NCBI GenBank assembly: GCA_021399345.1
Contig: JAAFKI010000070.1
Span: 1 to 33,940 of the forward strand
DNA from: Candidatus Heimdallarchaeota archaeon
GTDB taxonomy: Archaea > Asgardarchaeota > Heimdallarchaeia > Heimdallarchaeales > Heimdallarchaeaceae
Length of the DNA: 33,940 nucleotides
Direction: 5' to 3'
This document shows, one piece after another, positions 24,141-30,573 of this stretch; the first letter of the stretch is position 1, and every line of letters starts with the position of its first letter. Position numbers and translations under genes: made by a program. The notes under the pieces are model-generated. The model was not told where the DNA came from, searched no databases, and worked only from the letters and a program-made list of their open reading frames with translations.

Positions 24141-25685
24141 ATGAAACACTATCTCGAAGTACAATTTACATTAAGTGGTCCCTTACCTTCTGAAAGTAAG
24201 GGTGAAATTGAAGAACTTTTCAAACGATTCAGTGAAAAAACCCAAGAATCAAGAGATAAAGGGGAATTCAAGATAACTTCATGGAAAACTAAGGAAACTA
24301 AACTTGATATAATAATTACATCTGTTGATTCACTTTCTCCACATGTGGCAGTACTCAGATTAAGGAAACAGCTCTCTGCTGCGATAGGTAAAAAATACCG
24401 CGTAGGACTAAGAGGTTTTGCCTTTATCAAATATATCATTGAAACAGAATTGGAAGAAAAACCTGTTAAAGAGTTCACTTTACCATTAGTAAAAAATCTA
24501 GAGTTCTTTGAAGAAGAAGGAAAGAGTTTTGTTAAAATCGAAATTGATCCAGAAATCGAGGAAGACTTTGTAGAAAAAGGAGCAATTGAACGTATTGTGC
24601 GTCGAGTAGGTGAAAAAATTTCCAAACAACATTATGGAGCTAAGAAAGAACATCATCAAATTTCCTGGTATAGTGGGGAAAAGAAACATCATACTGAAGA
24701 AAATCCTACTCAGCTTATGCAAAACGCAAATTGGATTCAACGAACAAATTACAGAAACCAGTGGATACTGACTCCTACTATAACCGCTTTAGCTGAAGCA
24801 TTAAAACAAATAATGATAGATTATATTTATGAACCTCTAGGGTTCGATCAAATGATGATACCAAAACTGGTAGATTGGTCAATTTGGTTGAGATCTGAGC
24901 ATGCTGAAGGAATTTATCAAGGGGGTTTTGAACCCTATTTCGTAGTTCAACCAAAGTCTGCTGACCCCGAATACTTTGAAGAGATTGCGGATTATATAAC
25001 AATAACAAAAACTATCCCTACAGAGAAACTAGCTGAGAAAGTTTCTGCGCCCATTGGAGGATTATCTTACGCCCAGTGCCCCCCATTTTGGTCATTTTTA
25101 CAAGGTAAAACCATAGCAAAAAAAAGCCTTCCAATTAAAATATTTGACTGGAGTGGCCCCACCTATCGCTATGAGTCAGGTAGTGCTTACGGATTTGAAA
25201 GAGTTGATGAATTACACCGTATTGAAACATTATTCATAGGTTCTCCTGAACAAGCTAAAGAAATAGGAATACAAGTCAAAGACAAACTTAGGGTTATCTT
25301 TGAAGAAGTTCTTGATTTAGAGGTTAGAGAAGCCAAAGTTACTCCCTGGTGGTTACAACAATCTGCTCATGAGGATGAAATGGATACTGCTGAAGATCTA
25401 GTTGTCGGAACTATAGATTACGAAGCTTATATGCCCTATAGAGGTACTCGAGAGAAGAGTGAATGGTTAGAAATTCAGAATATTTCTATAATTGGTCAGA
25501 AATATCCAAAAGGTTTCTCTGTTAAAGCTGAAGGAAATATTGAATTGTGGTCTGGATGTGGTGGTGGTAGTTTCGAGAGATTTCTTACAGCTTTTATTTC
25601 TCAGAAAGGTTTGGACATGAATAATTGGCCTGAGAAATTTAAGAAATATATTGATAAACTTCCAGAACCAGTAAAATTCCATTAA
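24141..25685 (+). CDS. serS: Serine--tRNA ligase, methanogen (zinc-dependent) type
   Basis: N-domain HVAVLRLRK.L...IGKKYRVGLRG; YAQCPPFW; SGPTYRYESG..GFERVDELHRIE; WLEIQN; WSGCGG.SFER. Confidence 0.93.
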   Translation: MKHYLEVQFTLSGPLPSESKGEIEELFKRFSEKTQESRDKGEFKITSWKTKETKLDIIITSVDSLSPHVAVLRLRKQLSAAIGKKYRVGLRGFAFIKYIIETELEEKPVKEFTLPLVKNLEFFEEEGKSFVKIEIDPEIEEDFVEKGAIERIVRRVGEKISKQHYGAKKEHHQISWYSGEKKHHTEENPTQLMQNANWIQRTNYRNQWILTPTITALAEALKQIMIDYIYEPLGFDQMMIPKLVDWSIWLRSEHAEGIYQGGFEPYFVVQPKSADPEYFEEIADYITITKTIPTEKLAEKVSAPIGGLSYAQCPPFWSFLQGKTIAKKSLPIKIFDWSGPTYRYESGSAYGFERVDELHRIETLFIGSPEQAKEIGIQVKDKLRVIFEEVLDLEVREAKVTPWWLQQSAHEDEMDTAEDLVVGTIDYEAYMPYRGTREKSEWLEIQNISIIGQKYPKGFSVKAEGNIELWSGCGGGSFERFLTAFISQKGLDMNNWPEKFKKYIDKLPEPVKFH

Positions 25686-27418: not shown

Positions 27419-27525
27419 AGAATCTCTATCTTCAAACAATTTTCTCTTACACTCTCAAGCTACATATATATCCGGATATTTTGAGGAGTAACATATACTT
27501 TTTATATCATATTTTTGGTGTTCAC

Positions 27526-28365
27526 ATGATACATGTGTCAATCGATGACTATCTAGACGGTCTATTATCAGACACCGCAGAACCGTCTAAAAAAGCTATT
27601 ATGAAGCTTACTAAATTAATAGAGAATTTTGGAGAAATAATGGTCAAAAGCACCGAAAGAATGGAAGACTATATTGACACTCTCACTAATAGAATCAATG
27701 CTATTGAACATGCATTGGGCGTTTCATCTCGTGCTCCAGCTCCTTCAGCTGCACCATCATTTGATTCTCCTGTAGCTGCACCAGCAGCAGCAGCAGCATC
27801 TCCAAACTTAACAGCAAGTAACTCAAATCCAGTTGCAGCACCTAATTTATCCGCTACAGTTGGAACTCCTGATCTCAGTGGAGGTGGAGGAGGAATTCCC
27901 GCTCCATCTGGTAGTCAAGGATCCACCGGAGGAGGAGTCAGTAGTGCTGATCTTATGAAAGCAGCCTCCAATTTACAAAAAGCACCAGAACCTACACCAG
28001 GCGAACCTGGCGCACCTGGAGAAACACCAGTTTTTAGTCCATTTGGAGTTAGTGCTACCGACATCCAAGATGTTAGATCTGGATTAACTAAAGTTGATCC
28101 TGATGAACACAGGAAAGAAAGAACAGCAGCTGCAAGTGGAGAACCAGGTTCGATGCCTGCTAGCATGGCACTTAACTTAGAAGTCAAAGATGCTTTAGCA
28201 AAACGAAAATCAAGAACAGATGAAGGTGAAGATGCTGAATTTGAACCAACTCCTGTTGCACCAGCATCACCGCAAAAATCAACTAAACAAATGAAAGAAG
28301 CCTTGCAAGGAGAATTACGCGATGCGTTTAGCAGTCTTCTAGAGAGCGACACAAAAGAGGATTAA
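27526..28365 (+). CDS. Hypothetical protein with a coiled coil, Pro/Ala/Gly linker, tandem WH2-like motifs and a C/acidic-like tail (candidate actin regulator)
   Basis: GGTG at 27517-27520 precedes ATG 27526. Internal repeats GVSSADLMKAASNLQKA / GVSATDIQDVRSGLTKV and ALNLEVKDAL / ALQGELRDAF; KRKSR-TDEGEDAEFE. Confidence refers to the CDS; the function is inferred. Confidence 0.85.
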   Translation: MIHVSIDDYLDGLLSDTAEPSKKAIMKLTKLIENFGEIMVKSTERMEDYIDTLTNRINAIEHALGVSSRAPAPSAAPSFDSPVAAPAAAAASPNLTASNSNPVAAPNLSATVGTPDLSGGGGGIPAPSGSQGSTGGGVSSADLMKAASNLQKAPEPTPGEPGAPGETPVFSPFGVSATDIQDVRSGLTKVDPDEHRKERTAAASGEPGSMPASMALNLEVKDALAKRKSRTDEGEDAEFEPTPVAPASPQKSTKQMKEALQGELRDAFSSLLESDTKED

Positions 28366-28458: not shown

Positions 28459-30573
28459 ATGACATTAAATTTACAAAAATACATTAACTTTTTATTTAAA
28501 CAAAATACAAAAGAAAAACTGAATGATAACTTACAGGCTATTTTTAAAGAATCCAAAAATTATTCGGACAATATAAATGACCCTTATTATCAATGCAAAA
28601 ATGAAGAATTATTAGAAGTGTTTACTACTTCTTGGTCAGGTATTCAAGAGGAAATATCTGAAAGTATGGTTTATTATGCTTTTACATTATACTGGCTAGA
28701 TGCAATTAGTCTAGAATTGTACAGAGCAATACTACAAGAACTAGGATCTCAAAAACTGATTACAGATGAGTTACTAGTCGCTAGCTATTGGATGTTCTGG
28801 AAAAAACAAAATAAAATCGAAAAACCTAGAAGATATAGCTTTTACTCATTTCTTGAATTTATTAGGAAAATGGGTGTAGACCCTCTTAGTTTTCAAGATT
28901 TCGTCAATACAACTAAAAAGTTATTTCCAAATATGAAACTCTCAGAAAGGGAAATAGAGATTGGCAATGAAATTGAAAGATTTATCAAAAATATACAAGA
29001 AAGACCCCAGTATATAGAAGAGTTTTCAAGCTCAATTACTCCTGATACGATGAAGTATCTAGATTTCTATGTAGATCTTGAATTGATAAATAATCTAGCT
29101 TATTTCTCTGTAAAGAATATTAGTAAACAAATCAATTTAGAAAAGAAGATTTCTCTCGCTAATTTCCAGAAAATAATTGAGAAGGAATATGCCTCGAGAA
29201 AGATGAGAACTGTACCAACAGTCATAGATCCTGTTCTGGAACCCCATCTAGCAAAATTTGATGCAAAAGCTGTTTCAATGGAAAAGCTTGCAACACTACC
29301 AAAAGAACAAATGAAAGAATACGCTTCTATTAAGGCTTATTCAAGTCCAAAAAACGCTCAAAAAATACGTATCAGTTTTCTTGGTGGAGGCAATATTGGA
29401 AACATGGGGATTTTAGTTCAACATGACAATAATGCAATTTTACTTGATTTCGGGATGAGTGTTGCTAATTATTCTATTCCTAGATGGCATCCTTCACTCA
29501 AATATGTAAAAGCTGTTTTGGTAACTCATGCACATCTGGATCACACAGGGGCTTTACCTTATCTCATCAGACCGGAAAACGGGAAAAGGTGGTATGCAAC
29601 TCAGACTACTAAAATGTTAGCTGAAAAACTACTCTACTCAACCTCTTCTATCCTTCGTTCAAAGGGTATTACTAAAAAGAATGCCTCCCCATTTCAGAGT
29701 GTTTTTCTAAACAAATCAAATCTTATTAACCTCTTTAACGAATTTAATCCACTAAAGATTAACAAGACAGTAGAGGTAAGTTCAGGTTTTAAGGTAACCC
29801 CGTATTCAGCATCTCATCTTTATGGAAGTGTAAGTTACAAAATAGATGTTTTTGGAACAACAATTCTATTTACAGGAGATTTTTCAACTGATGAAAGCGA
29901 GTTATTCCCTGGAGCAAAACTTCCAACAGATTGTGATGTAACTATCTTTGATGGTACTTACTATAATAGAGAAACAGTGAAAGAAGATCCAAATACAGTG
30001 ATTTTACGAGCAGCGGAAACATGTGATCGCTTAATTATTCCTGCTTTTTCTGTTGGTAGAACTCAAGAAATGATCAAGAGATTAGAAAGATTAAGAGTAT
30101 CTGCTAAAAGAAGAGTTATGACTACTGGACTTGCAGCTGATGTTTCAAAATCCATGGGTTTAAGAGCTAAATTTGACATAGTCAAAAGCCTCTCAGCTGA
30201 CACTTTTGAAAATAGTGATATTGTTGTAACTGGTCATGGAATGTTACAGGGTGGAACAGCTAGGAAACTGATAGATGAAACCAGTTCAGATGAAAACACA
30301 GGCATTCTTATCTGTGGGTATCAAGCGCCCAACACACTTGGCTTTGCGCTCAAGAACAATCATTCCATTGCTAAAAAGAGATATCAACAAAAGGTATTTT
30401 CAGCTCACATAAGTGGACACAGTAGTTCAGAATCATTGAATGAATTCATCGATAAACTGAGTGGTAAAAAAGTGATGGTTCATACACCTGATAGAACAGT
30501 TCCAAGAGAGGAACATAAAGGGCTTATTATACCAAAATACAATCAGGAAATAATACTTAAAAACAAAATATAA
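28459..30573 (+). CDS. Beta-CASP metallo-beta-lactamase ribonuclease with an about 300-aa uncharacterised N-terminal extension
   Basis: FLGGG, LLDFG, THAHLDH, SHLYGS, FTGDF, DGTY, PAFSVGRTQE, GMLQGG, GYQAPNTLG, SGH, VH. Confidence 0.9.
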   Translation: MTLNLQKYINFLFKQNTKEKLNDNLQAIFKESKNYSDNINDPYYQCKNEELLEVFTTSWSGIQEEISESMVYYAFTLYWLDAISLELYRAILQELGSQKLITDELLVASYWMFWKKQNKIEKPRRYSFYSFLEFIRKMGVDPLSFQDFVNTTKKLFPNMKLSEREIEIGNEIERFIKNIQERPQYIEEFSSSITPDTMKYLDFYVDLELINNLAYFSVKNISKQINLEKKISLANFQKIIEKEYASRKMRTVPTVIDPVLEPHLAKFDAKAVSMEKLATLPKEQMKEYASIKAYSSPKNAQKIRISFLGGGNIGNMGILVQHDNNAILLDFGMSVANYSIPRWHPSLKYVKAVLVTHAHLDHTGALPYLIRPENGKRWYATQTTKMLAEKLLYSTSSILRSKGITKKNASPFQSVFLNKSNLINLFNEFNPLKINKTVEVSSGFKVTPYSASHLYGSVSYKIDVFGTTILFTGDFSTDESELFPGAKLPTDCDVTIFDGTYYNRETVKEDPNTVILRAAETCDRLIIPAFSVGRTQEMIKRLERLRVSAKRRVMTTGLAADVSKSMGLRAKFDIVKSLSADTFENSDIVVTGHGMLQGGTARKLIDETSSDENTGILICGYQAPNTLGFALKNNHSIAKKRYQQKVFSAHISGHSSSESLNEFIDKLSGKKVMVHTPDRTVPREEHKGLIIPKYNQEIILKNKI

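Follow-up and report, generated by a model that had tools for sequence, protein, structure and literature searches.

A conserved Asgard protein laid out like eukaryotic actin-assembly factors: an unproven candidate for archaeal actin assembly

Do Heimdall-group archaea possess a protein that assembles actin by means of WH2-like motifs? The question is raised by one ORF of the window analysed here, a 33,940-nt stretch of contig JAAFKI010000070.1 from a Candidatus Heimdallarchaeota archaeon, for which the original prediction proposed the module order of a eukaryotic nucleation-promoting factor (NPF) with resemblance to Ena/VASP proteins. The Asgard actin regulators in the 2026 literature are mainly profilins and gelsolins. 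Since WH2-like LKKT motifs have been described there only inside gelsolin linkers and no nucleator or elongator is named in the literature on Asgard actin regulation, the candidate is new. If it acts as proposed, a multivalent actin-monomer scaffold would fill the Asgard nucleator/elongator gap, WH2-type actin regulation would date to before eukaryogenesis, and a VASP- or tandem-WH2-like machine would be present in Heimdall-group archaea, the closest known relatives of eukaryotes. By analogy of layout the conserved protein is a candidate archaeal actin-assembly factor; it has to be called unproven because all formal sequence tests for actin-assembly families failed.

Translation of the window gives a stop-free ORF at 27526-28365 on the forward strand, which encodes 279 aa plus the stop codon. 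Every element that had been predicted is present by residue position and in the predicted order. The protein begins with a long helix (residues 5-64, 27538-27717, +) that contains many invariant columns within residues 5-61, is the best-conserved part of the protein and can be aligned with the N-helices of the short homologues from Asgard archaea. AF2 models it as two helices (6-14 and 19-63, pLDDT up to 91), and it is probably an element for coiled-coil pairing or anchoring. A disordered linker rich in Ala, Pro, Gly and Ser follows (residues 65-135, 71 residues, 27718-27930, +; pLDDT 34-48). Counted over the 72 residues 64-135, it holds 11 P, 16 A, 10 G and 13 S, and it carries conserved PNL[ST]-type mini-repeats, of which the A-P-N-L-S cores are nearly invariant among homologues and the remainder is variable.

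Two conserved WH2-like units stand behind the linker. Unit 1 (residues 136-155, 27931-27990, +; AF2 helix 140-151) is an S-x-x-D-capped amphipathic helix with the end LQKA-P, and unit 2 (residues 173-199, 28042-28122, +; AF2 helices 177-186 and 192-203) is a capped amphipathic helix with the end LTKV, followed by D-P-D-E-H-R-K-E-R. Within them lie 17-residue repeats, 137-153 with the end LQKA and 174-190 with the end LTKV, both of which fit G-V-S-x-x-D-[LI]-x-x-[AV]-x-S-x-L-x-K-[AV]. The next element is an amphipathic helix with the basic end KRKSR (residues 209-230, 28150-28215, +; AF2 helix 212-232), with E219 and R227 fully and K221 and L224 almost fully conserved in the family alignments; among known elements, the WASP 'C' helix and the VASP 'FAB' element are similar to it. 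An acidic patch (28216-28245, +) with the sequence DEGEDAEFE at residues 232-240 contains a nearly invariant Phe, F239, which is kept in at least 90% of the aligned sequences, family f7 included. As had been noted from the sequence, there is no Trp in this patch. The protein ends with an amphipathic helix and an acidic tail (residues 251-279, 28276-28362, +), with invariant columns from S252 to T276, the core E-L-R-x-A-F-S and an AF2 helix at 252-277 (pLDDT 71-83). This terminal helix is the second best-conserved part of the protein and is likewise common to the short Asgard homologues. With the family alignment as input, AF2 placed its helices, each of them isolated, precisely on the conserved blocks, with pLDDT values below 50 elsewhere. 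The pTM of 0.20 means that neither a globular fold nor packing of helix on helix is predicted.

A word-indexed search returned 60 homologues with 41-97% identity, and those with a name all derive from Heimdallarchaeota, Heimdallarchaeaceae or 'Asgard group' MAGs. The family profile run with HMMER against 1.84 billion cluster representatives (E up to 0.001) found only 15 proteins; except for P0068, an unrelated repeat protein, they belong to the same family or are fragments of it. Among 400 Asgard genomes, profile matches were obtained in 26 of the 30 that belong to f1, the family of the window, in all four of one f4 genus (g13), in 2 of 11 of one f7 genus (g17) and in none of the 135 of the Loki-type family f20. 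The matches within f1 had E values from 1e-38 to 1e-170; weaker, collinear matches occurred in f4, in f7 and among short forms in f13, f31 and f32. The nearest clusters in the ESM Atlas are unnamed Asgard proteins (scores 0.83-0.84), and the N-helix alone returned nothing there. The gene is real, conserved and without annotation; its family is found in Asgard archaea only, and there in little more than one Heimdall family and two sister genera. A restriction of homologues to actin-bearing lineages, which an actin ligand led one to expect, is borne out, as Asgard archaea all have actin. In the host genome the gene is single-copy, and no paralogue or other carrier of its three motif classes was found among the ORFs.

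The alignments separate blocks from linkers clearly. Hardly any variation is seen in the N-helix and the terminal helix, and the units, the basic helix and the acidic Phe are conserved as well; the linkers are free to change in both length and sequence except for the small A-P-N-L-S cores. Since 60 homologues keep the blocks while the linkers vary, the module layout is beyond chance. Selection acts on the blocks, and the number of docking units evolves: one, two or three WH2-like units are present depending on the lineage. Two members from one f1 genus (L027, L028) have three units, the last ending LKKV. The f4 members L032, L047 and P0072 also have three, reading ...A-L-S-S-L-K-K-V and preceded by up to 16 repeats of G-G-P-N-L-G-G-A-P (about 16 copies in L032). 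The f7 members L033 and L046 carry a single unit, G-V-T-L-K-K-A, with four more residues between the helix and L; f7 members also have genuine runs of 5-7 Pro. Such runs occur only in these f7 relatives, and the window copy has none, as had been noted. In f1 and f7 alike the basic helix precedes an acidic patch with its nearly invariant Phe, and the C-terminus of L033, L043 and L044 is the same terminal helix as in the window protein. One member, P0067, repeats the terminal E-L-K-x-A-F-S helix at least four times and not the WH2-like unit. The short proteins (140-190 aa; f13, f31, f32) consist of an N-helix, a Pro/Ala arm and a terminal helix that is basic or of the type E-L-K-x-x-F, and the short Asgard homologues lack WH2-like units. 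Because these relatives are made up of N-helix, arm and terminal helix, the window protein is the long variant, proper to Heimdall archaea, of a more widespread Asgard family, into which the WH2-like units are a lineage-specific insertion.

Whether the units belong to a known class was addressed by profile searches. At the Pfam gathering score of 23.1 bits, WH2 (PF02205) matched neither the window protein nor 32 family members (19 + 13), and no WH2 match was found at the family locus in six-frame scans of 5 chosen and 400 Asgard genomes; the bit scores of the units were below anything reportable. Pfam and NCBIfam gave no domain above threshold on the window protein, and their sole match below threshold, Ribosomal_L12_N, was put down to the Ala-rich hinge behind a helix. 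All PDB chains were searched at E up to 10 with three profiles, built from the whole family, from 30 aligned units and from the C-terminal 75 residues; the matches were low-complexity and generic coiled-coil only, without a WH2, WASP, N-WASP, WAVE, VASP or BRK1 chain among them. Residues 136-200 alone likewise gave only low-complexity and generic coiled-coil matches with PDB sequences. A typed WASP query recovered the N-WASP VVCA in the same library (6uhc_H, 2vcp_D, 3m3n_W; 9dlz_H is also present), and the non-match is meaningful for this reason. The Pfam and PDB negatives are nevertheless low-powered for motifs this short, because a canonically spaced Loki microprotein, described below, also fails both. 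The spacing differs as well: hydrophobic residues of the window units stand at 0, 3/4, 7 and 10 as against 0, 1, 4, 10 and 13 in canonical WH2, the distance from helix to LxKV is 3 residues below canonical, and the units read LQKA and LTKV, thus departing from the canonical helix-linker-L-[KR]-[KR]-[VT] pattern. A WH2 regular expression matched N-WASP controls and none of the window's units; it is worth little, since 1248 of 3556 host ORFs match it. The predicted tandem-WH2 likeness therefore stands as far as units in one to three copies and LKKV in relatives are concerned, and falls short in the non-canonical spacing and the silence of Pfam WH2.

Compared with tandem-WH2 and beta-thymosin proteins (Spire, Cobl, N-WASP V-V, thymosin beta-4; PF02205), the window protein has in common the capped helix, L-x-K-[VA] and the charged tail, as well as a copy number of 1-3 by tandem duplication and Pro/Gly spacers, and it differs in the hydrophobic spacing of its units and in the second residue of LKKV, which is T or Q. 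With the EVH2 half of Ena/VASP, which comprises a G-actin-binding site, an F-actin-binding site and an oligomerising coiled coil, it has in common a probably oligomerising helix with a proline/glycine-rich arm, multivalency by coiled-coil pairing, and one or more WH2-like helix-LxKV units followed by a helix that ends in an Arg/Lys cluster. The Ena/VASP set of EVH1, poly-Pro and C-terminal tetramerisation coil is, however, missing from the window protein, whose coiled coil is N-terminal, which adds the acidic Phe patch and the terminal helix, and for which profiles find no similarity in the PDB. The VCA of N-WASP (6uhc_H) resembles it in two helix-LxK[VA] units, a hydrophobic helix ending K-R-x-S-[RK] and an acidic-aromatic run. 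Unlike WASP/WAVE, the window protein has Phe in place of the conserved Trp, a shorter helix-LxKV linker and an acidic patch that is followed by about 40 more conserved residues instead of being C-terminal, and it lacks a GBD, a WHD and a basic region. The sequence tests place the protein in none of the WH2, WASP/WAVE VCA, Ena/VASP and CCDC53/BRK1 classes. What remains of the proposed NPF/VASP module order is that the order is real and conserved; membership in the WH2, VCA or Ena/VASP families found no backing in Pfam or the PDB.

A possible relative of the units was found in another Asgard lineage. When the unit profile was run against 121 Loki-type genomes, the same ORF of about 50 aa was the best genome-wide match in four of them. 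The spacing of this microprotein is exactly that of canonical WH2 (L0, I4, G7, L10, V13), with three extra canonical linker residues (K-G-V) compared to the window units, and it shares L-[QT]-K-V-D-x-x-E-x-[RK]-K-x-E with unit 2, the second half of which aligns with it; both are Asgard-only. The unit-profile HMM scored 3 to 18.9 bits on the Loki microproteins (best E about 0.002-0.01 in a genome-sized search space), and hhalign of unit and microprotein gave P 2e-4 and a probability of 44-48% over 12 columns with 58% identity. The reverse HMM, from the microprotein to the window family, reached 1-8 bits and was not significant. Of the 121 Loki-type genomes, 111 have the microprotein, and in 83 Heimdallarchaeia genomes it was not found apart from one weak match, so that with the queries used its distribution and that of the long family are complementary. 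It matches neither Pfam WH2 nor any PDB entry, has no coiled-coil or linker architecture, and no longer relatives of it were found. In one genome (G169) the microprotein module is fused behind a genuine Asgard profilin domain (profilin E 1e-10 to PDB 5zza_P; module 32 bits), a fusion that connects the Loki module with the actin system; the repeat profile gives no score on this fused copy. The module also stands behind LRR proteins (20-21 bits). Taken together, these alignments are suggestive of a relationship between the Loki module and the window's units.

The N-helix offered a second lead. Pfam CCDC53 (cut-off 24.6 bits) scored 25.5 bits on L027, 23.5 on L048 and 21.0 on L028, and weak matches were seen in 4 of 19 A1 members, the window protein being among the 19 (best E 0.034). 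Like CCDC53 (WASHC3) and BRK1, the family has a single long N-terminal helix, then a low-complexity region, and '...R-I-x-x-I-E...' is common to them. The hhalign comparison of the Asgard N-helix alignment with human WASHC3 yielded, however, a probability of 2.5% over 29 columns, a weak comparison because the template was one mammalian sequence. A typed helix recovers BRK1 in the PDB, and BRK1 was missed by the family profile. No CCDC53 match above cut-off was obtained in 400 Asgard genomes, where the other matches were ordinary coiled coils, and other family members match ordinary coiled-coil families as well as they match CCDC53. An identity with CCDC53/BRK1 was not upheld on these three counts (WASHC3, BRK1, 400 genomes), and we read the CCDC53 matches as generic coiled-coil likeness.

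Genomic context gives little guidance to a partner. In the window the gene is accompanied by a class II aminoacyl-tRNA synthetase with a tRNA_bind_4 domain (probably SepRS), a CARDB protein, a beta-eliminating lyase-family enzyme (probably threonine aldolase), a beta-CASP nuclease, a UDP-glucose dehydrogenase and an HD protein. The order of lyase-family gene, window gene and beta-CASP homologue, the latter assigned by sequence likeness, is kept in another genus. Conservation of the neighbourhood does not extend beyond f1, the neighbours in other lineages being unrelated, and in six lineages only housekeeping genes and no cytoskeletal genes were found next to it. Elsewhere the host genome encodes two actins, an ARP, two two-domain gelsolins, one weak profilin-like ORF and an ARPC4-like ORF (32.5 bits, above the Pfam cut-off). 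ARPC4-like genes, the Arp2/3 subunit that was searched, were counted in 70 of 400 Asgard genomes; f4 and f7 have the family and lack these genes, and f5 and f14 have the genes and lack the family. Co-occurrence of the two was rejected on account of these mismatched phyletic patterns.

What does the protein do? We are highly confident that it is a scaffold of the cytoplasm, disordered for the most part, with docking helices presented on a coiled-coil anchor. For the ligand, actin is our best single guess, albeit a tentative one. In the scheme that we propose, the N-terminal helix would pair the protein with itself or anchor it to a partner, and a flexible Ala/Pro/Gly/Ser arm would display the two WH2-like units, the basic helix, the acidic Phe patch and the terminal helix. 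With their WH2-like units, several arms joined by the N-helix would collect actin monomers, and the filament would be gripped by the basic helix, so that nucleation or elongation would be favoured. Such a mode would be like that of the EVH2 half of Ena/VASP or of a tandem-WH2 factor and not that of a WASP/WAVE-type activator of Arp2/3; the layout is closer to that of a VASP-like or tandem-WH2-like scaffold than to that of an activator of this kind. As a whole, this actin-scaffold explanation is possible, though well short of probable. We consider it rather doubtful that the larger claim holds, namely that Heimdall-group archaea possess an oligomeric, multi-WH2-like actin-assembly factor with helices that are pre-eukaryotic and related to the Loki microprotein module. 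Against actin it can be held that the N-helix and the C-terminal helix, the best-conserved elements, are without analogue in known actin regulators, that short amphipathic helices in disordered proteins easily look alike, and that the link to the Loki microprotein is borderline and holds in one direction only.

For a scaffold or adaptor whose partner is not actin the chance is close to even, and because the best-conserved parts have no actin-regulator analogue, such partners are collectively somewhat likelier than actin. The N-helix would then dock on, or pair within, a complex, the terminal E-L-R-x-A-F-S helix would be the business end and dock on a conserved Asgard machine, for example a GTPase module, ESCRT/Vps4 or a division protein, and the WH2 likeness of the units, lineage-specific additions, would be a convergence of amphipathic helices. 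The short homologues share only the N-helix and the C-terminal helix with the long form, and the terminal helix is what P0067 multiplies; both observations, together with the failure of the formal actin-family tests, point in this direction. A terminal L-x-x-x-F-x-x-L-[KR] after a Pro-rich arm is also loosely MIM1-like, but the Arg position of MIM1 is occupied by an invariant Ala, for which reason a MIM1 reading of the helix was rejected. Moreover, the gene neighbourhood indicates no such partner in any lineage, and a non-actin partner leaves the LKKV-type endings, the poly-Pro and the basic-then-acidic-aromatic order unexplained.

Another alternative is a true NPF of the WASP/WAVE/WASH type, in which the N-helix would be WHD/CCDC53-like, the units V, the basic helix C and the Phe patch A, and which would activate an Arp2/3-like assembly of the host's ARP and ARPC4-like proteins. 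The V-V-C-A order matches by comparison with the N-WASP sequence 6uhc_H, the host has both an ARP and an ARPC4-like ORF, and CCDC53 is a recurrent top Pfam match on the N-helix. We nevertheless regard an NPF as very improbable: the N-helix family hardly aligns with human WASHC3, BRK1 and WAVE1 chains are missed by the family profile, CCDC53 is not found above cut-off among the 400 genomes, the Trp-less acidic patch precedes 40 further conserved residues, and ARPC4-like genes do not follow the family. In addition, we know of no full Arp2/3 complex in archaea. The WASP/WAVE-type interpretation of the original prediction is thus not sustained, as the N-helix and the C-terminal helix have no WASP/WAVE counterpart and no link to Arp2/3-like genes was seen. 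Improbable, if less so, is a structural or phase-separating low-complexity protein with helices that bind no specific ligand. Roughly half of the chain is rich in Ala, Pro, Gly and Ser and stays below a pLDDT of 50, and the linker's only PDB similarity is to a repetitive fibril protein. Polar residues of the helices are, however, near-invariant at 45-50% overall identity (for example S-T-E-R-x-E-D and S-T-K-Q-M-K-E), which speaks for specific contacts. The actin-scaffold explanation and its rivals can be tested directly with standard assays, since the protein is small and soluble and its motifs are of peptide size; if the ligand is not actin, the protein would still be an undescribed, strongly conserved Asgard adaptor.

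The gene's 5' end can be read in two ways. A TATA-like box, TTTTATAT, was read from the sequence at 27500-27507 (+), about 19 nt upstream of the ATG at 27526. It would be a promoter element, and its distance from the ATG points to an mRNA that is leaderless or nearly so. A GTG at 27535 could also serve as the start, and from the position of TTTTATAT and the N-terminus M-S-I-D-D-Y of many homologues this GTG (276 aa) may be the true start rather than the ATG. The AT-rich stretch with TTTTATAT is also the source of a seemingly conserved upstream 'peptide' in the stop-to-stop ORFs of homologues.

The profile built from the WH2-like units of the family of the 279-aa protein (27526-28365, + strand) gave a borderline match to a microprotein that is conserved in the Loki-type family f20 and is about 50 aa long, as encoded at L079:1462-1611 and L075:1486-1632 (both + strand), with further relatives in the same family. 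This microprotein exhibits canonical WH2 spacing, with a helix, K-K-G, two residues, L-Q-K-V and an acidic/basic tail, and is present in 111 of the 121 genomes searched. In Heimdallarchaeia the search returned none except one weak match, and neither Pfam WH2 nor a sequence search of the PDB gave a match to the microprotein. In a Loki genome (G169, contig C3; L093:1017-1790, + strand) the module is located C-terminal to an Asgard profilin domain, the profilin part matching PDB 5zza_P with an E-value of 1e-10 and the module part scoring 32 bits. This fusion connects the microprotein module with the actin system. Leucine-rich-repeat proteins also carry the module behind them, with 20-21 bits (further fusion loci L091, L092 and L094).

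A second element of the family, the terminal E-L-K-x-A-F-S helix, occurs in at least four repeats in P0067, a divergent metagenomic homologue of 452 aa that has only one WH2-like unit. The helix appears to behave as an independent, multipliable docking motif. The linker of the 279-aa protein (27718-27930, + strand) contains P-N-L-[SG] mini-repeats, which are kept among relatives: their form is A-P-N-L-S in the Heimdall family f1, and an f4 relative (L032:832-2094) carries ∼16 copies of G-G-P-N-L-G-G-A-P. The mini-repeats are not consistently N-x-S/T sequons, and the protein lacks a signal peptide.

The host genome also encodes, on contig C175 (52571-52876, + strand), a 168-aa ARPC4-like ORF that matches Pfam ARPC4 with 32.5 bits (cut-off 22.2). 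Such ORFs were present in 70 of 400 Asgard genomes, with a patchy distribution at family level.

Downstream of the gene for the 279-aa protein lies a beta-CASP/metallo-beta-lactamase nuclease (28459-30573, + strand), whose catalytic part begins near residue 318, behind a helical N-terminal region of ∼300 aa that has no domain assignment. In two f1 genera an ORF homologous to this nuclease, by sequence likeness alone, adjoins the gene. The 514-aa protein at 24141-25685 (+ strand), with a tRNA_bind_4 domain and a class II aminoacyl-tRNA synthetase core, is probably an O-phosphoseryl-tRNA synthetase; the same synthetase gene is located two genes upstream of the homologue L027 from another genus.
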